From: a virus
Strand: one strand, 5' to 3'
Virus record (IMG/VR): IMGVR_UViG_3300020473_000017
Length of the DNA: 64,000 nt
Under the pieces are notes generated by a model that was given only the letters and a program-made list of their open reading frames with translations, ran no database searches and was not told the DNA's origin. A program made the position numbers and the translations under genes. Shown here piece after piece: positions 12,424-53,325 of this stretch. Position 1 is the stretch's first letter, and each line of letters starts with the position of its first letter.

Positions 12424-13128
12424 TTAATCAAGGTTAGCCCATACCCCTGTAGATCTACAAGTAGAAACCAACTCAGGATAATCTTGGAACCGTACTACGG
12501 TATCAAATAGAACCACATATCTCCACCCATTAATCTGATTAATGACTGAGTGAATTGCATTAGGTTGAAATAAGCATACTGATTCGTTCTTAATATCCCT
12601 TGTGTGCCATGTTTTCTTAGGTCTATTCCTTACCATGATATAACACCTCTTCCCCTCTTCTACGGGCACGTCCAGTCCAATGATGCCACGTAAAACAATA
12701 CCATCTGGGGGATTAGGATCTCCATCCCTATGTAATGGTATCTTTGCCTTGGGTTTCATACTAGCAATAGATGCTCTCCTAGTAATTCCTATATCAATTA
12801 AAGTTTGAGAAAGAGTAGGTAACCAATTGACATTCTTATGAGCACGTAGACCTTGCCACTGAAACATATCCTGCTCAAACTGTTCTATCATACAAAGTTG
12901 TTCCTGCTGCTCATCCATCTCACCATAGAGAGGTGCAGCAACTGGATTATAAACACCACCACTCTTAGAGTGTGCTACATCATCATACCAATGGCCAAAC
13001 TTTAAACTCTCTAGATTATCACGAAACTCTTTCTGGATGTCAGGAAATCTTTCATGTATCAAATCAAACTTGGGATGTAATTTATATACATCTACAAATC
13101 CCCAGATGCTCACCAGAATAACCTCCAC
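12424..13128 (-). CDS. Aspartyl/asparaginyl beta-hydroxylase-like protein
   Basis: IPLHRDG, AIHSVIN, RYVVLFD. Confidence 0.75.
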   Translation of the reverse strand: MEVILVSIWGFVDVYKLHPKFDLIHERFPDIQKEFRDNLESLKFGHWYDDVAHSKSGGVYNPVAAPLYGEMDEQQEQLCMIEQFEQDMFQWQGLRAHKNVNWLPTLSQTLIDIGITRRASIASMKPKAKIPLHRDGDPNPPDGIVLRGIIGLDVPVEEGKRCYIMVRNRPKKTWHTRDIKNESVCLFQPNAIHSVINQINGWRYVVLFDTVVRFQDYPELVSTCRSTGVWANLD

Positions 13129-13997
13129 TTACCATCACACTTCAAACCATGACCTTGAAATGTAATCCTATAATCACCCTTCTTAAAACTATCTCCTAAA
13201 ATCATCTGATGCATGATCATACCATAGTAATAGAATGAATACCCTTCTATATGTGGAATAATAATTGGGACATACTGCTCCAAGTCACCACAATCATCAT
13301 CAAACAATTTATACTTCCATGGATCCTCAATAGTATTACCTGCTTTTATCTCCTTAACATACTCTACGTTCTCATATCTACCTATGATGTCTCTGTATAT
13401 CCAATACTTAATATCATTTGCCTTCCTCTTATGTTCTTCTGGAAGATCCCACAATGCAATAGCAGCACCATTATGAGGTACCTTAATGCTAAAGGTGTAA
13501 CTTAACTGGTTCTTGAAATCAATATCCTTATACTTCTTTCTGAAATGATTCCTACCATACCACCACTGTCCATCATAATGAAGACAACGATGATGCTTTC
13601 TCTGATCAGGTGCTTGATCGAACTCATAGATATGAAACCCTGGAAGACCTAGACCATCCTCATACTCACAATCTCCTAATTCTTTCTGTAGTTCTATTAT
13701 AAACTTATCATATAACCATCCGAGTTTCTTCCTAAGAACACGGTTATACATTTGATATAGTTTATGATAAAACTTCCATCCTCTATCCCTAGCATCCATA
13801 TAGAGAGTAGCACCAACAGTATAGTAATGAACATAATCCTCTATACCACTATCTGCTCCTGCTATTTCTAATGCTGGATGCCAGTTAGTCCTTGCTAACC
13901 ATATGTTCCTCATCCCAAGGAGTTCTTGGAACACACGTTCATTCTCTTCCTCAGTAAGGACAGGTATCCTATTAAATCCTAAAAGTAAAGTCTCCAT
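13110..13997 (-). CDS. 2OG-Fe(II) oxygenase-like protein
   Basis: PGFHIY, LHYDGQ, SYTFSI, MHQM, RITFQGHG. Confidence 0.7.
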   Translation of the reverse strand: METLLLGFNRIPVLTEEENERVFQELLGMRNIWLARTNWHPALEIAGADSGIEDYVHYYTVGATLYMDARDRGWKFYHKLYQMYNRVLRKKLGWLYDKFIIELQKELGDCEYEDGLGLPGFHIYEFDQAPDQRKHHRCLHYDGQWWYGRNHFRKKYKDIDFKNQLSYTFSIKVPHNGAAIALWDLPEEHKRKANDIKYWIYRDIIGRYENVEYVKEIKAGNTIEDPWKYKLFDDDCGDLEQYVPIIIPHIEGYSFYYYGMIMHQMILGDSFKKGDYRITFQGHGLKCDGKWRLFW

Positions 13998-14929
13998 ATC
14001 CCATCACATCTCACAGCATGTCCTTGCAAAGTAACTCTTCTATCATCAGTTGTAAGTTTATAACCTGGAACTATCTGGTGCAATACATGCCCAGTATGAT
14101 AGCATGATTCTCCTATTGTATAGGGCATAACCATTGGTTTAGTATCGTATATAGGATCATACTTCATAGGTATTGATCCATTATCCCAGAACTCTTTACT
14201 CTCTCTAGGATCACCAACACCTCTAATGAATTCATCAGCAGTTGTAGTAACTCTTTCTAATGTATGTTGTAATGCTGGATTTGATTCATAAAACTCTGGA
14301 CGGTTCTTGAAGTCTACATCCTCAGCATGTTCCATAAAAGTCTTAAGGGTTGCATCCTTATCAGAGTTTGATTGAAAATTAAACTTAGCAATCATCTCTT
14401 TATCCATGTTCATCCAGTCCCATACAAAAAGACCACCACCATGCTTAGGTAGCTCTAAAGGTAGAGTAAATGAAAATGGTTCTTCTAAATCATACTCATC
14501 ATAAGTCTTCCATATAGGCATGTGATCTCTATACTGGATATCAACATGCAAAGATGCTAAAGGTTTAGTAAACCTATCAGCACACTCAGGTGCAGAGACT
14601 TGACCTGGTTTATGACCAAAGACATGGAACCCAGGGTAAGCTAACTTATCATCCAGTTCTACTGGATCACCAAGCAACTCCGAAAACTTCTCACAAAGAA
14701 TATCATAAACCCATCCAAAGTGTTTCTTAAGTACAGGATTTAAAACCTCCTTATGCTTATGATACTTTCCAATACTAGTTACACCTTCCATGTAAGTTAC
14801 TGCACCGACAGTAAAAAAATCCATAGGGACTGGTGCCCTACGGATCCAAAGTTTTTCTAGTTTGTCTACACTTTGTACTACTTTCTTGGATTGTTCTTCA
14901 GTTAATATATCACAATATCCAAGCTTCAT
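13979..14929 (-). CDS. 2OG-Fe(II) oxygenase-like protein (paralog of 13110-13997)
   Basis: PGFHVF, LHVDIQ, SFTLPL, LHQI, RVTLQGHA. Confidence 0.7.
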   Translation of the reverse strand: MKLGYCDILTEEQSKKVVQSVDKLEKLWIRRAPVPMDFFTVGAVTYMEGVTSIGKYHKHKEVLNPVLKKHFGWVYDILCEKFSELLGDPVELDDKLAYPGFHVFGHKPGQVSAPECADRFTKPLASLHVDIQYRDHMPIWKTYDEYDLEEPFSFTLPLELPKHGGGLFVWDWMNMDKEMIAKFNFQSNSDKDATLKTFMEHAEDVDFKNRPEFYESNPALQHTLERVTTTADEFIRGVGDPRESKEFWDNGSIPMKYDPIYDTKPMVMPYTIGESCYHTGHVLHQIVPGYKLTTDDRRVTLQGHAVRCDGIWRLYF

Positions 14930-14930
14930 A

Positions 14931-15638
14931 TTACATGGTCATGAAAGTAGTAAAGATTTCCTTGCTCTCTGGAAGCATACCAACAAGTTTTTCTTTATGC
15001 TCTTCTGATAATTGATTGAACCTATCAACTATAACAGATGCTTGCTCTTGTGTCAACTCTAGTTCAGTGTCATCAGCGAAGAAGAAGGTTGTAATCTTAC
15101 CTTCATCAGCCAACTCACATAGTGATTCAAGATACACTAGACCATCACCAAACTCAAAGGAGTTCTTCTGTGTCTTTATTTGATTTGCTAACTTCTTCTG
15201 ACGTTCCTTACCTTTCTTAGCATAGTCAGCAGCCTTAGAACGAGAGATTAATTCAATCTCTTTCTTACGATTGGAAGCACGCTTCTCACGCTCTTGCTTC
15301 TTCTGAACCTTACGCTTCTGATTTATAAATTTGTATGCCTGTTTGGTAGTCTCACCACCAGCTCCAGATGACTTCTCATCTTCTTTGATTAGTTCCTCAG
15401 CCATTTTCTTTTTCTTAGTAAGACGTTTAATAAGTTTACGAGCCTGTTTACTCCTACCATCTATGTAGGTTGGATCATCTCTACGATGTTCCCATTGTTT
15501 ACTAGCAGATTCTTTTTTCTTTCGTGCTTTAGTAGATCTACGAGAGAACTTTAAAACAGGATCGAATCCCATTATAGCACCCTTACCAGTGGTAGCGGTG
15601 TTAATTGGTCCAACGTTGGTAGGTGGTCCTCCTTCCAT
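14931..15638 (-). CDS. Basic hypothetical protein, probably head-associated, with a capsid-like N-terminus
   Basis: N-terminal PTNVGPINTATTGKGAIMGFDPVL matches gp23 residues 54-77; Lys/Arg-rich middle. Confidence 0.75.
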   Translation of the reverse strand: MEGGPPTNVGPINTATTGKGAIMGFDPVLKFSRRSTKARKKKESASKQWEHRRDDPTYIDGRSKQARKLIKRLTKKKKMAEELIKEDEKSSGAGGETTKQAYKFINQKRKVQKKQEREKRASNRKKEIELISRSKAADYAKKGKERQKKLANQIKTQKNSFEFGDGLVYLESLCELADEGKITTFFFADDTELELTQEQASVIVDRFNQLSEEHKEKLVGMLPESKEIFTTFMTM

Positions 15639-16012
15639 TATAGTTGCCTAAGTTCTTCTAGTATACAATCATTAACAGCAATCGCTCTAAGACTTTCACT
15701 CTCATCCACTTGAGGATACTTATTTAAAAACATCATGATTGCTTTAATATCTGACCAGTAATCTCTTTCCATTTTATAGAAGAGAAGTAATGGTGCAGCG
15801 TCACCGAATACATTGTATATTATTATAATATGATTCAAAAGAAGACTGAGTTTGACCTCAGTTCCCTTATGATATTTCTTGAGGAGACGCTTAATATACT
15901 TAAAGCGTCTCATGTCCTCAAAGAAATCTTCCTTCGTTGCCGCTTGAGGGTTATCATAATGTTTAATAGCAAAGAGAACGTAATTGTCCTCGTTCAATTC
16001 ATCAAATCTCAT
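15638..16012 (-). CDS. Conserved T4-like phage hypothetical protein
   Basis: FAIKHYDNP...F.ED..RFKYIKRL...LNHIII.YNVFG. Confidence 0.8.
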   Translation of the reverse strand: MRFDELNEDNYVLFAIKHYDNPQAATKEDFFEDMRRFKYIKRLLKKYHKGTEVKLSLLLNHIIIIYNVFGDAAPLLLFYKMERDYWSDIKAIMMFLNKYPQVDESESLRAIAVNDCILEELRQL

Positions 16013-16018
16013 GCGTCA

Positions 16019-16882
16019 TTACGTTCTGTCGTTAACAGTTAGTGTACCTGCAGTACTATATGCTGTAGTACCACCAATGCTGTTGTTAACTACACATCTG
16101 TACTTGGCACCGTTGTCAGCAGCAGCAGTAAGTCCTGTAAGGGATCCTGTATTAGCTGATGTCTTACCTGCAAGGTTAGACCAGTTGGTGTTGCCAGATT
16201 CCTGTCTCTGCCACTGATAGGTGAGCGAAGCACCTGATCCAGTAGAAGATGCACCAGAAAGTGTGAATGTAGCAGCAGCTGTAGCAGCAGTTGTAACTGT
16301 GACAACAACAGCAGCACCGCCACCACCACCAAGTGATGCGTCAGCGATTGTTATTGTCTCGTTATCTGCATAACCTGTACCACCAGATACAAGAGTGATG
16401 GTTGGATCACCGCCAGATGGAACTTCAACTGTGAAGTCAGCACCTGTACCAGATCCTGAACCAGCAGCATCAGTTATTGTGTATGTTCCAACAGTTCTGG
16501 ATCCATCAGCACCACCATTGTCACTGAATACTGCAACCGCACCAGCAGGAGCGTATGTAGTTACGTTAGCAACTGTTCCTGGTGTGATTACAGAAGCAAC
16601 GTCTGCACCGAGTGTATCATCTGCTTGTGTCTCAGATGCGTTAGCTTCAGGTCCACAAATGTTTACTAGATGTTCTGTTTTGAAGCGTGTCTTACCATGA
16701 CAGTCTGTGTATGTATCGACAGCCCACCAGCCAGGACCGCTAAGTCCTTTGTTTTTATTGACTGCTAGTTGTGCTTCTGTATCATCTATAAAGACAATAG
16801 TTTTTGTGTTAGACGATTTTGCGACACCAATTTCCGCTTTGGTTTTGTTGGCGTTGCTATCGTCACTTCCGTAAAGGGACAT
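16019..16882 (-). CDS. Virion structural protein with C-terminal Ig-like domain
   Basis: MSLYG/GPGWW N-terminus, GGTGY repeat, YQWQ...YRCVV Ig motif; TAAATA upstream. Confidence 0.7.
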   Translation of the reverse strand: MSLYGSDDSNANKTKAEIGVAKSSNTKTIVFIDDTEAQLAVNKNKGLSGPGWWAVDTYTDCHGKTRFKTEHLVNICGPEANASETQADDTLGADVASVITPGTVANVTTYAPAGAVAVFSDNGGADGSRTVGTYTITDAAGSGSGTGADFTVEVPSGGDPTITLVSGGTGYADNETITIADASLGGGGGAAVVVTVTTAATAAATFTLSGASSTGSGASLTYQWQRQESGNTNWSNLAGKTSANTGSLTGLTAAADNGAKYRCVVNNSIGGTTAYSTAGTLTVNDRT

Positions 16883-16927
16883 TGGGACGCTCCAATTCTA
16901 TAAGTTTCCTATATTTTATTTATTAGA

Positions 16928-17133: not shown

Positions 17134-17838
17134 TTATATATAGTCCTCTTCATCTTCCCATTTCTCCATAACGACACCTTCCTTTTCAAGTTGTGACAAA
17201 GAATAGTCAAGTATAACTACAATTCTGTCGTGAGTACCGTTATGTTGTGCCCAATGTTTATCGTGATCATGGAAAGCAAATGGTTTTCCCACCTCCCATG
17301 TTCTCTTACGACCACGTACACTTAACCATGCACCTGGATCAGTAACTATAGGTACATGCAACCTCAATGAATCTATGTCACCACTATGAGGATTGATCTT
17401 TGTACCTGGAGATAACTTACTTATAGTACAACTCTTTAATATCTTAGAATCTATCTCAGGTTGCAATGCTAAATGAAATACAGGACAACACTTCTTCATA
17501 CTCTCAGTTAGTTTGGGTAGTACTTCCTGTACCTTCTCTACCGTAGTATTAAATAACTCAACGAATGAAACCATTTCGCTGAGTTCAAAGTCTTCTTCTG
17601 TTGCTGTATCACCTACAGCATTAAGTGGCATAGGGATGACTGTCCATGAGCCATCCCAAAGCTGCACCCTGCCAAGGTTCCTATCCTCAACCCACTTATC
17701 TAATACCCATTCCTTTAAGATGGGTTGGTTTGTTTCTACAAACTTTAGAATCTCTGGGATGATCCATTTATGATGTACTTTTACATTCTGAAATGAGGAT
17801 AGATGTGATATCATATCCTCTTGCCAAATCTTTCTCAT
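17134..17838 (-). CDS. Aspartyl/asparaginyl beta-hydroxylase
   Basis: SKLSPGTKINPHSG, LRLHVPI, KHWAQHNG, RIVVILD. Confidence 0.85.
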   Translation of the reverse strand: MRKIWQEDMISHLSSFQNVKVHHKWIIPEILKFVETNQPILKEWVLDKWVEDRNLGRVQLWDGSWTVIPMPLNAVGDTATEEDFELSEMVSFVELFNTTVEKVQEVLPKLTESMKKCCPVFHLALQPEIDSKILKSCTISKLSPGTKINPHSGDIDSLRLHVPIVTDPGAWLSVRGRKRTWEVGKPFAFHDHDKHWAQHNGTHDRIVVILDYSLSQLEKEGVVMEKWEDEEDYI

Positions 17839-49872: not shown

Positions 49873-51243
49873 TTACATGAGGTTTGCAACTTTAACTCTT
49901 CTGTAGTAAGCGTTAGCGTTGAGGTTACCAGCTGCCTGTGGATCTGAATCAGATAGAGCAGCAAGTCCCTTAGCAAATGGGTTAAGAACCATTCCGTAAC
50001 GAGTTTTAAACCCGATACGTGGTTGGAATGAATCCTGACCAATCGCTCTGTACATCTGGAGAGGTACATAAGGACAGTAGAATAATCCAGCATCGTATGC
50101 GTTGGATCCTTTATAACCTACAACGTAGTACTGATCAGAACTTACGTTTGCAGAATATGGGTCAATGTAGACCTTGAAGCGTCCGTTGAGTGTTCCAACG
50201 AAAGTGTTGCCTGTGTCATCAACTTCGCCAAGTCCACCAGTAGCACCAGTGATACCTGAATCGTAGTCAAGGATACCAGACATAGCAAGAGCAGAAGCTA
50301 CATCAGCAGATGTGATGATAACGTTGCCCTTCCCGCGACGAGTTTCCTGCGCGATTGCGTTAGCGTCTCTTTCGATTTGGAAGAGTAGACCTTTGAATTT
50401 CTCAACAGACCATCTACCATTACTGTCAACGTCAAGGTCGAATACACCTTGGTTTGCTACGTTTGCCTGAGCACCTGGCTTAGCACCACGGTAAACAGTA
50501 CGTACAACTTCACGGTTGATTTCAGCAAGGATCTCTGTTGAAAGAATGTTTGCTAGTTCAGACTCGGCATCTAATCCGTGGATTGCTTTCAAGTCTTGAG
50601 CAAGTTCAACTGAGTAGTCAGCTCTTAGCGCACGACCTTTTGCTTCTACAGCAATACGGTCTATGCTAAATGCCATCTCCATGAAGGCATTACCAGCTGT
50701 ACCATCGCCTAGTCCTTCAAGATCGCCAGTAGAGAACTTGCTAGAAGCAAGGTCATAGTTAGTGGATGTTGTACCACCACCAGTTGCGTCGTTGATAAGA
50801 CCTGGGTTTTTCTCAGTGGTAGCTGTAGGAGGTGTTCCACCCTTAGTACCAGAGAACTGTGCATCTGGCTCATCGAAGAATGCTTCGTTACCAGCCTGAT
50901 TGGTGTAACGAGAACGCATTGCGAAAATAAGTCCAGTTGGACCTGACATAGGCTGAACGCCAGCGATGTCATAAGCAATTAGCTTAGGCATAGCACGACG
51001 GATCAAGCTGATGAGGATAGGGTCGAAACCATATACAGCACCAGAACCTGTTGTCTGAGTGTTGATAGGACCAACGTTTGTTGGTGCCTCTGTAAGAACG
51101 GCACGTTCTTCTTGTAGTGCCTTCTCTTGGTTCTCCAAGAGGATGGCGGTTACCGACTTACGATAGTTGTCCTTAATTTCAGGAAGACCATCATGGTTAA
51201 GTACTGGTGCCCACTTCTCTTGGAGTTGTTCTGCATTAAACAT
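49873..51243 (-). CDS. gp23: Major capsid protein gp23
   Basis: KWAPVL, LENQE, FDPILISLIRR, GVQPM.GPTG, ELAQDLKAIHGLDAE, YCPYVPL, KTRYG. Confidence 0.98.
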   Translation of the reverse strand: MFNAEQLQEKWAPVLNHDGLPEIKDNYRKSVTAILLENQEKALQEERAVLTEAPTNVGPINTQTTGSGAVYGFDPILISLIRRAMPKLIAYDIAGVQPMSGPTGLIFAMRSRYTNQAGNEAFFDEPDAQFSGTKGGTPPTATTEKNPGLINDATGGGTTSTNYDLASSKFSTGDLEGLGDGTAGNAFMEMAFSIDRIAVEAKGRALRADYSVELAQDLKAIHGLDAESELANILSTEILAEINREVVRTVYRGAKPGAQANVANQGVFDLDVDSNGRWSVEKFKGLLFQIERDANAIAQETRRGKGNVIITSADVASALAMSGILDYDSGITGATGGLGEVDDTGNTFVGTLNGRFKVYIDPYSANVSSDQYYVVGYKGSNAYDAGLFYCPYVPLQMYRAIGQDSFQPRIGFKTRYGMVLNPFAKGLAALSDSDPQAAGNLNANAYYRRVKVANLM

Positions 51244-51281: not shown

Positions 51282-52340
51282 TTAAAGTCTCTTAGCTAAT
51301 TCAGCGACATAAGATGTCATTGATTCACTAAGTTGCTTTTCAACTTTTGCTTGTGGCTCTTCAGTAGAGATTTCTTCTGCTACTTCAGGTGTCTTAGCAC
51401 CAAAGTAACTCTCTTTGATTTGTCCAAGCTTTTCACGATACGTCTCTTCTGATTTGAACTCGACTGCTTCGGCTAGAGAGGTAAACTTGTCCTTCTGAAC
51501 TTCTGCAAGTCCTCTGGATAGTTCTGTCAAAATCTCATTCTTACGATAGGTAGATACCTTCTCATGCAGTCCGACGTTCTTCTCAACTTGTTCGTTAAGA
51601 CGGGTCTCCATTTCATCAAGTTTCTCGCTCATATCAGCGACTGCATCAAGCTTCTCATCTGGAAGATTGATGTTGCTTTCAATGAACAATTTCTTTAATC
51701 CATCCATGAATGCCTCTGTTACTTCTGAACGGAGTCCTTTCTCGATAGCGAGTTCGTTCTCGGACATCCATTCCTCAGTGGCATACTGTAGGAAATTCTC
51801 TACGCGACCAGCGAACTCTTCTTTGATCTTTTCGAGTTCTTCACCAATTCTGGTCTCTGCGGTTTCCTTAAGTCCAGCGACTTGCTCTTGTACCTTTGCG
51901 TGTACAGCAGCTTCAAATACAGTCGTTGCTTTCTTTTGGAATTCTTCGTCAAGATCGGCACCTGCAAGAATTGCACTGATGTCTTCTTTGACTTCTGTTT
52001 CGGAGATTGTGTCTCCTTCCTTTTCTACATCATCAAAGATCTTAGCGGAAAGTCCACCTGGAAGACTAGGTGAAGCACCACTTGGCTTTGTTTGAATTGT
52101 AGAATCTTTTGTTGCACCTACAGGAGCAGCCGCTTTAGCACCAACATTTTCTGGTCCTTCTGGCTTCTCTTTTGTGCTTCCACCTACTTCGATAGCATCG
52201 TTTTTTAGGTCGGATTTCTGTTGAGGTACTGCGCCTTTCTTGATGGCTGCATCGCCGACTGCGGCATCTTCCTCGATTTTTTCAGCTGGAGCTTTGCTTT
52301 CGGCAATCACCTTCTGAAATTTTTCATCAATACTTGACAT
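51282..52340 (-). CDS. gp22: Prohead core scaffold protein gp22
   Basis: Acidic coiled coil, EEF..KA..VFEAAV, EEWM.ENELAIE.GL; gene position. Confidence 0.93.
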   Translation of the reverse strand: MSSIDEKFQKVIAESKAPAEKIEEDAAVGDAAIKKGAVPQQKSDLKNDAIEVGGSTKEKPEGPENVGAKAAAPVGATKDSTIQTKPSGASPSLPGGLSAKIFDDVEKEGDTISETEVKEDISAILAGADLDEEFQKKATTVFEAAVHAKVQEQVAGLKETAETRIGEELEKIKEEFAGRVENFLQYATEEWMSENELAIEKGLRSEVTEAFMDGLKKLFIESNINLPDEKLDAVADMSEKLDEMETRLNEQVEKNVGLHEKVSTYRKNEILTELSRGLAEVQKDKFTSLAEAVEFKSEETYREKLGQIKESYFGAKTPEVAEEISTEEPQAKVEKQLSESMTSYVAELAKRL

Positions 52341-52397: not shown

Positions 52398-53048
52398 TCA
52401 CAGACTTCTGAGAAGTTGATTGAAAGCGCGGAGCTTTCTCTCAGCAAGTTCTTGCGATGAGGGAGCGTTATCAAGGGATTCCTTGACAGCTTCTAATTGT
52501 GCTTCTTTAATCTTACCATCAACTAAAGTCCACTCTTTACCTTCATAGATACCTTCAACAAAAGCATCAGGTGCAGAAGGGTCAGCAACTATATCTGCTG
52601 CTGTAGATAGGATAAAGTCGTCGGCGACTACAGATGTAGCACCCTCTTTTTTAAGAGAGCCTAAACCTCTAGAAGAAACACCAAGTTGTACCCCTTCCTC
52701 AAGCAAGTTCTTTGCGATCTTACCCATTGGGGTTTCTAACAACTTTGCCTTACCCACGAAGTTTTTACCTTCAGGAGTAAGTTCAACGATCTTATGGGAA
52801 ACGCGATCCAAATTAATTGTTGGACCTTCAGGATGACCAAGTTCTCCGAGTGCTCTTCCGCGTTGGATGAACTCCTCATTGTACTTGTTTACCTCACGAG
52901 CCATGGTATCGTACTTATACATACGACCATTGCGATTGGTGATCTCGGTCTGTAAAAACACACCCTTAATGTAGGTATCCTTCTTACCGTCTTTGTCTTC
53001 GGTAAGAACTTCTACAGGTTCAATTTGTTCCGTGATCAGTTTCATCAT
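52398..53048 (-). CDS. gp21: Prohead protease gp21
   Basis: MKLITE, NRNGR.Y, ALGELGHP, GVSSRGLGS, DIVADPSAPDA. Confidence 0.96.
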   Translation of the reverse strand: MMKLITEQIEPVEVLTEDKDGKKDTYIKGVFLQTEITNRNGRMYKYDTMAREVNKYNEEFIQRGRALGELGHPEGPTINLDRVSHKIVELTPEGKNFVGKAKLLETPMGKIAKNLLEEGVQLGVSSRGLGSLKKEGATSVVADDFILSTAADIVADPSAPDAFVEGIYEGKEWTLVDGKIKEAQLEAVKESLDNAPSSQELAERKLRAFNQLLRSL

Positions 53049-53325
53049 CGTTTTCCTTTGCTTCGTTGTCATCTGGATTGCGGTTAATCACATCTGCCAT
53101 TTCCTCTGGTGAAGCTTCACCTTCTGGTGGTAGACCTGTTTCCCTAGAATTCACATTACCTTCATCAGGAACATGCGGGAACATGCGATTAGCAATATCC
53201 AATTTGCTGGCATCAACGGACGCGGCCGCCTTTACCTGCAACATGTCTTTGAGTTTGTCCAGAGCAGCAGCATCCTGCCCTCCGTCCCAAAGTAAATCAA
53301 CGATTTCTCGTTCTTGTGTAGCCAT
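53020..53325 (-). CDS. Small acidic prohead-core-region protein (gp67/68 position)
   Basis: Acidic 101 aa ORF between the portal and protease genes. Confidence 0.65.
   Translation of the reverse strand: MATQEREIVDLLWDGGQDAAALDKLKDMLQVKAAASVDASKLDIANRMFPHVPDEGNVNSRETGLPPEGEASPEEMADVINRNPDDNEAKENDDETDHGTN

Follow-up and report, generated by a model that had tools for sequence, protein, structure and literature searches.

Why should a small, basic protein that is not a capsid protein begin with a capsid protein's N-terminal arm? The question arises in a 64,000-nucleotide stretch of viral DNA (the window), in which one gene, hereafter the target, opens with a segment nearly identical to the start of the mature major capsid protein gp23 encoded in the same stretch. 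The window comes from a relative of the Prochlorococcus phages P-HM1 and P-HM2, and MED4-213 is also among its nearest isolates. T4-like cyanophages count among the ocean's most numerous viruses and, to our knowledge, have none of the T4 internal proteins.

The target protein and its gp23-arm copy

The features of the locus and of the gp23 region are collected in Table 1. The target gave a full-length match to the phrog_4187 profile (E 3.6e-52, residues 7-233), which also recovered the S-PM2 ortholog S-PM2p150 (E 2e-121) and P0138, a protein of the type called B below (E 6e-16). About 1,900 phrog_4187-type relatives of the target were found in marine metagenomes. We take the family to be of unknown function, T4-GC 538 being annotated 'hypothetical' in Sullivan et al. 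2010. In the nearest isolates (P-HM2, P-HM1 and MED4-213), gp23 is 92-93% identical to that of the window, whereas the target is merely 61-63% identical. A PDB sequence search with the target gave no functional lead, a Pfam search returned one sub-threshold Mac match and nothing else, and a search of the ESM Atlas recovered its own cluster alone. No T4 internal protein was matched in Pfam, PDB or PHROG, and no Soc or Hoc capsid decoration domain in Pfam or PHROG.

Table 1. Features of the target locus and of the gp23 region, in window coordinates.
Feature	Position	Strand	Remarks
Target gene	14931..15638	(-)	235 aa; phrog_4187; PHM2_171 (T4-GC 538) positional ortholog; S-PM2p150 (T4-GC 844) distant ortholog
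gp23-arm copy, target residues 6-29	15552..15623	(-)	19/24 identical; disordered in monomer model; pN/pS 0.20
Basic run, target residues 30-42	15513..15551	(-)	x-F-S-R-R then K/R-rich, directly after arm; arm-plus-basic-run module also heads GC426 proteins
IKE, target residues 84-86	15381..15389	(-)	Hydrophobic-x-Glu motif preceding variable Ser/Gly/acidic linker; all subfamilies
Basic helix, target residues 96-156	15171..15353	(-)	Long, confident, pLDDT 82-91
Acidic C-terminal helical domain, target residues 161-235	14934..15158	(-)	Net charge -12; low model confidence; fastest-evolving
DUF7207 / T4-GC 198 gene	15638..16012	(-)	TAATG overlap with target = translational coupling; precedes slot in all cyanomyoviruses examined
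'Head protein' phrog_613, T4-GC 537	16019..16882	(-)	First gene of late cluster; weak Ig-like C-terminus
Late-promoter-like box AATAAATA	16917..16924	(-)	Fits cyanophage late-promoter consensus NATAAATA; 35 nt upstream of head-protein ATG
gp23 major capsid protein	49873..51243	(-)	456 aa; Pfam Gp23 E 4e-143
gp23 residues 54-77, copied arm segment	51013..51084	(-)	~ residues 66-96 of mature T4 gp23
gp23 LTE 50-52, predicted maturation cleavage site	51088..51096	(-)	Aligned to T4 gp23 LTE 63-65 (HMMER)
gp22 scaffolding core protein	51282..52340	(-)	PF25623
gp21 prohead protease	52398..53072	(-)	Peptidase_S77

The likeness to gp23 is confined to residues 6-29: BLASTP aligned them with gp23 54-77 without gaps (pairwise E 2e-11), and the local-alignment score was 109, against 28.1 +/- 4.5 when the target N-terminus was shuffled 1000 times. 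Over this segment the nucleotides agree at 48/72 positions. A pair of arginines follows both segments (R33-R34 in the target, R82-R83 in gp23), with a spacer one residue shorter in the target. In gp23, the copied segment is immediately preceded by LTE. HMMER placed this tripeptide on LTE 63-65 of T4 gp23, the known gp21 cleavage site, which makes the copied stretch equivalent to the ~30 residues with which mature T4 gp23 begins. These data agree with the sequence-only reading, which had reported the 19/24 match and its coordinates, the nearby arginine pairs and the gp21-type site. Its count of different codons at 11 of the 19 identical residues also came out the same when repeated, and together with the nucleotide figure bears out its conclusion that conservation acts on the protein and that no recent DNA copy is involved.

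The target itself starts with M-E-G-G-P-P and goes straight into the arm, with no leader or cleavage site; since an in-frame TAG lies four codons 5' of the ATG, the reading frame cannot be extended upstream. Its pI is 9.7. Residues 1-30 are uncharged and predicted to be disordered, and residues 31-160 carry a net charge of +28 and form long helices in an AlphaFold2 monomer model (mean pLDDT 61), in which the arm is disordered and the C-terminal domain uncertain. Judged by its motif, IKE at residues 84-86 is a candidate internal prohead-protease site. Membership of the gp23 family was considered for the target and rejected: PF07068 (Gp23) was not matched at E <= 1, the Gp23/HK97-like capsid domain is missing, and the model is helical.

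The arm is the most constrained part of the protein. In a family alignment of 20 sequences, 16 positions of the arm segment are invariant, the two Asn residues of the arm motif among them. Across 48 distinct family genes the arm had the lowest pN/pS, and the first six residues and the C-terminal domain both had 0.46. In the same 48 genes synonymous differences were near saturation throughout (pS 0.56-0.70; 0.60 in the arm).

The copy is not a universal trait of phrog_4187. Proteins of the S-PM2 type (GC844) carry an 11-residue leader ending in hydrophobic-Asn-Glu, which resembles the cleavage site of their own gp23, and their N-termini had no significant similarity to the cognate gp23 arm in local alignments compared with shuffles. 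A resemblance to that arm matched by eye was not supported by alignment and was dropped; the conserved hydrophobic-Asn-Glu at residues 9-11 is what remains of it. In a third, uncultured subfamily (B-type, 40 IMG/VR loci), whose homology to the window type extends along the whole protein (hhalign probability 99.8%), a leader of 16 residues with Glu-Glu at its end comes before an abbreviated arm. Aligned by hhalign with a profile of 58 gp23 sequences, this subfamily gave one match, which covers in register the cleavage site and the two ends of the arm (E 7e-4, probability 26%). The in-register gp21-type site implies that such a protein is exposed to the prohead protease. Two distant metagenomic members of the family, P0147 and P0153, are similar to the beginning of certain gp23 arms (p 0.02 and 0.007, with a panel of 94 gp23 sequences standing in for their own gp23).

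The gp23 genes of three IMG/VR loci (L124-L126), 67-69% identical to that of the window by tblastn, carry the same short arm type, PTN-x-GPIN..., which is therefore wider than the P-HM clade.

In the window the target follows the head-protein and DUF7207 genes, the three forming the upstream half of an arrangement that continues through gp61 in orthologous loci. S-PM2, Syn1, S-RSM4, S-CAM1/3/4, S-WAM2 and others share the gene order head protein, DUF7207, target, GC201, gp61, nrdA, with T4-GC 844, a distant phrog_4187 member, in the target's place. The promoter-like box upstream of the cluster fits the late-promoter consensus reported for cyanophages (PMC2984593), and in the P-HM2 infection transcriptome the three corresponding genes, PHM2_169, PHM2_170 and PHM2_171, are all of class Late (PMC5082946 supplement).

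Several neighbours deserve a description of their own. In the head protein, a conserved N-terminal part of 90 residues (phrog_26159) is followed by a long Gly/Ala/Thr/Ser-rich middle and the weak Ig-like C-terminus; since the middle also matches tail-fibre and structural-protein PHROGs, the protein may form a surface fibre of the Hoc kind. At 17134-17838 (-), a TlmH-like Asp/Asn beta-hydroxylase gene (PF05118, E 9e-19) flanks the late head cluster. On the other side of the target lie two tandem phrog_24927 paralogs, at 13979-14929 (-) and 13110-13997 (-), which are 2OG-Fe(II) oxygenase-like and show an HxD...H pattern by eye.

Unrelated slot proteins that carry arm copies

In other cyanomyoviruses the slot after DUF7207 and before gp61 holds unrelated protein bodies with the same kind of N-terminus. 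A slot ORF of 167 aa in Marine virus AG-345-L05 matches the long arm type of its own gp23 with a score of 91, compared with 30 +/- 5 for shuffles; there are 13/21 identities, including the cleavage Glu, and 7 of these use different codons. Likewise, Syn9 gp190 and P-SSM4_163 reach 103 on the arm of their own gp23, an arm of a third type (shuffles, 28 +/- 4). All three copies align in register with the maturation-cleavage Glu.

These mimics score far higher with the cognate arm type. In a 10x10 matrix, those of the window type, AG-345-L05 and Syn9/P-SSM4 reached 91-111 with that type and did not exceed 68 with any other, and with one representative per arm type only 2 of 720 pairings reached the cognate sum (exact permutation). 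The exception was S-SM1_197, which scored 97 on a foreign arm type and 62 on its own gp23, suggesting that the slot gene or its N-terminal module has moved between phages. The foreign type is the gp23 arm type of an unrelated IMG/VR phage, which S-SM1_197 (L251:1106-1654, compared with L143 and L257) matched at 19/25 positions.

This bears on a further claim of the sequence-only reading, that the arm has to co-evolve with gp23. It holds at the level of arm types, since the slot mimics match the cognate type. Pair-specific correlation did not appear within the P-HM clade: for five cognate pairs, cognate identity was not above non-cognate identity in amino acids or nucleotides, a weak test, since neither protein varies in the core motif. 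The result argues against ongoing gene conversion in that clade.

Syn9 gp190, P-SSM4_163 and S-SM1_197 belong to T4-GC 426, and in GC426 proteins the gp23-arm copy is followed by x-F-R and a Lys run. When they were compared with the target, hhalign aligned 33 columns (E 2e-4), the arm plus the basic run, and BLASTP the arm alone. Since this is all that the GC426 proteins share with the target, the N-terminus behaves as a portable module. An assignment of the target to GC426/phrog_696 was accordingly rejected: its profile match is to phrog_4187, and the bodies cannot be aligned.

The module also has a profile to itself. phrog_3286 (64 positions, unknown function) matches the arm plus Lys-run module alone, namely residues 100-148 of the AG-345-L05 slot protein (L248:1162-1665), 17-47 of P0138 and 4-38 of S-SM1_197. 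As this profile consists of an abbreviated arm and the Lys run alone, free-standing small ORFs made of nothing else may exist.

Two slots have unusual layouts. In the AG-345-L05 protein two modules stand in tandem, each with a helix that ends in Glu-Glu-Val; after the first comes a long gp23-type arm, and after the second an abbreviated arm and Lys run in the style of the uncultured phrog_4187 subfamily, soon after which the protein ends, with no basic helical body. In P-SSM2 the slot (L253:1145-2091) holds two genes: GC199, with an AG-345-L05-like start and a Gly/Asn-rich repeat at its end, and GC200, in which an arm-like segment and Lys run lie near the C-terminus, not the N-terminus, and inside which a tRNA-Asn is annotated.

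A putative incorporation tag and its alternatives

We propose, with a probability of about 55%, that the target is an internal head protein that binds DNA and that its arm copy is a tag for head incorporation or anchoring, by analogy with the T4 internal proteins and their capsid targeting sequence (CTS). The target would be made late and built into the phage head as an accessory protein. Its first ~30 residues, a free-standing copy of the mature gp23 arm, would be the incorporation or anchoring module and would engage the surfaces used by gp23's own N-terminal segment. These may be on the prohead's scaffolding core, in the groove between neighbouring subunits once the lattice has expanded, or both; a special vertex is a further candidate site. 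The Lys/Arg run and the strongly basic helical stretch of ~130 residues that follows would be suited to lie on packaged DNA, and the small acidic domain would end the protein.

Mass spectrometry of purified S-SM1 virions detected the T4-GC 426 protein S-SM1_197, with 17 peptide counts (Sullivan et al. 2010 Table S8, PMC3037559), the counts for portal gp20, gp22 and gp23 being 18, 22 and 119; one protein with this arm module is therefore a virion component. According to the same table, GC426 was undetected in Syn9, and the head protein ortholog T4-GC 537 was detected in S-PM2 virions (5 peptides). The virion support comes from a protein that shares the N-terminal module alone, and phrog_4187 itself has no positive proteomic match. 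We found no published virion proteome of P-HM2, whose virion composition has been deduced from T4 by BLAST (PMC13041748).

A capsid-targeting tag had been offered by the sequence-only reading as one of its options. This option has gained real support from the constraint on the arm, the late expression of the gene, the cognate-matched copies on unrelated slot proteins and the presence of GC426 in S-SM1 virions; on the other side, the S-PM2 ortholog, T4-GC 844, is missing from the proteins detected in S-PM2 virions, in what was a shallow study (PMC3037559 Table S8), and Lys/Arg-rich proteins yield few usable peptides. Three further points weigh against a tag: the S-PM2-type members of the family, whose N-termini are not significantly similar to their gp23 arm; the window protein's want of a leader and cleavage site, in contrast to T4 internal proteins; and the better fit of S-SM1_197 to a foreign arm type.

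That absence would also fit an assembly factor that leaves no trace in the virion. Here the arm would sit on the scaffold or the protease in place of the gp23 N-terminus, for example tuning shell geometry, and the protein would later be degraded by gp21. Cyanomyoviruses are without gp24, gp67 and gp68 (PMC2984593), and the target's long-helical, charged body is scaffold-like, with a hydrophobic-x-Glu before the variable linker in all subfamilies. In the unexpanded T4 head, gp23 residues 66-105 are disordered and lie inside; they probably touch the scaffold, because the head-length mutations A66D, A94V and G97S, ascribed to scaffold contacts, map to this segment, the equivalent of the copied one (PMC9546572). 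Yet the GC426 protein with the same module is retained in S-SM1 virions, and the strongly basic composition of the target is typical of DNA-contacting internal proteins, gp22 being acidic. We regard a purely transient role as plausible but less likely than incorporation.

The sequence-only reading had suggested that the protein docks by replacing a gp23 arm, for example at the portal vertex, and that its basic middle could anchor DNA. In a specific form of this model, the arm would enter the mature gp23 lattice in trans at places that lack a gp23 arm, close to the portal or to pentons, and so rivet the protein to the shell. After T4 expansion the homologous segment, ordered in the expanded lattice alone, forms an arm and an N-fist with extensive contacts within and between capsomers (PMC9546572). 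A core that is invariant in gp23 and mimic is what one shared pocket would lead one to expect, and P1 DarA and Hdf offer a precedent for DNA-contacting proteins anchored at penton-hexon junctions (PMC12810830). However, the S-SM1 spectral count of the analog equals that of the 12-copy portal at one-third of its length, which is hard to fit with merely five portal-adjacent copies. Moreover, the T4 arm ends up on the outer surface, so that an internal body would need threading through the shell. A complex prediction with two copies of gp23 84-456 (58-row alignment) and target residues 1-60, run without controls, scored 0.00 and carries no weight for or against binding. We consider this form of docking quite improbable.

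A broader version of lattice docking would make the locus a hypervariable 'cargo slot' of cyanomyoviruses, with a trans-acting gp23-arm copy bringing its products into or onto the head. The arm would be kept matched by concerted evolution, through gene 23 recombination or co-selection, and a domain-swapped-like insertion beside pentons or the portal would rivet a DNA-binding or effector protein to the shell. Taken as a whole, this picture is speculative and rather unlikely.

The segment might instead be recognised by an enzyme that acts on gp23, either the prohead protease or a modifying enzyme such as the adjacent Asp/Asn beta-hydroxylase-like protein, making the target a co-modified protein or a decoy. 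The hydroxylase and oxygenase-like genes that flank the cluster, the invariant Asn residues and the cleavage Glu kept in register by other subfamilies all point this way. Such a role is nonetheless very improbable: the window protein has no cleavage site, the hydroxylase genes are missing from the slot in S-PM2, Syn9 and S-SM1, where mimics still occur, and PHM2_172, the downstream gene at the position of the oxygenase-like genes in P-HM2, is of the middle and not the late class (PMC5082946). Finally, these genomes often recombine into mosaics and members of the family exchange N-terminal variants, as might be expected had a gene 23 fragment once been fused to the front of the gene, but a functionless relic is very unlikely, and to us hardly credible, since the segment is translated and under the strongest purifying selection of the protein despite saturated synonymous change, is kept in about 1,900 relatives and has equivalents of different arm types on other proteins.

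Comparison with known systems

The preferred reading of the arm copy as an incorporation tag can be set beside several known head proteins. DarA and Hdf of phage P1 are likewise accessory head proteins, which lie on the inner capsid surface with a positive face on the DNA, and DarA is cut by the prohead protease (PMC12810830); unlike the target, they are anchored by folded domains and not by a copy of a capsid arm, and their sequences are unrelated to it. With gp23 (PF07068) and its paralog gp24 the target shares 24 residues nearly identical to the cognate mature gp23 arm, but it lacks the HK97-like capsid fold, its remainder being helical and basic.

The closest parallel in genome position is T4-GC 426/phrog_696 (Syn9 gp190, SSM1_197, PSSM4_163), annotated 'major head protein', which occupies the same slot after DUF7207 and has an arm copy followed by x-F-R and a Lys run; it differs from the target in arm type and PHROG, and the bodies are not detectably homologous. 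The label indicates that the resemblance of these genes to gp23 was caught by annotation, and an arm tag, if true, would account for its use on the small proteins of Syn9, S-SM1 and P-SSM4. In our literature search, no paper turned up on an arm-copy tag or on its correspondence to the cognate gp23. The isolates Syn9, S-SM1 and P-HM2 are available for testing these points. An arm tag would give a direct handle on the partner bound by the gp23 N-terminal segment during assembly, and it suggests a simple route to loading foreign proteins into cyanophage heads.

In function, the nearest counterparts would be IPI, IPII and IPIII of T4, which are also small basic proteins of a T4-type phage with diverse bodies behind a short common N-terminal module for head entry. 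This module, the CTS, has 10 residues, loads the internal proteins onto the scaffolding core and is cut by gp21 after a Glu (PMC3012670, PMC9026906). Some relatives of the target carry a short Glu-ending leader that resembles it, whereas the window protein is leaderless and has no sequence similarity to the T4 internal proteins. The conserved module of the target differs from the CTS in that it copies the capsid protein arm and sits downstream of the cleavage position, and would therefore stay on the mature protein. If our reading is true, the portable arm copy would be a second, mechanistically different means of capsid targeting beside the CTS of T4.
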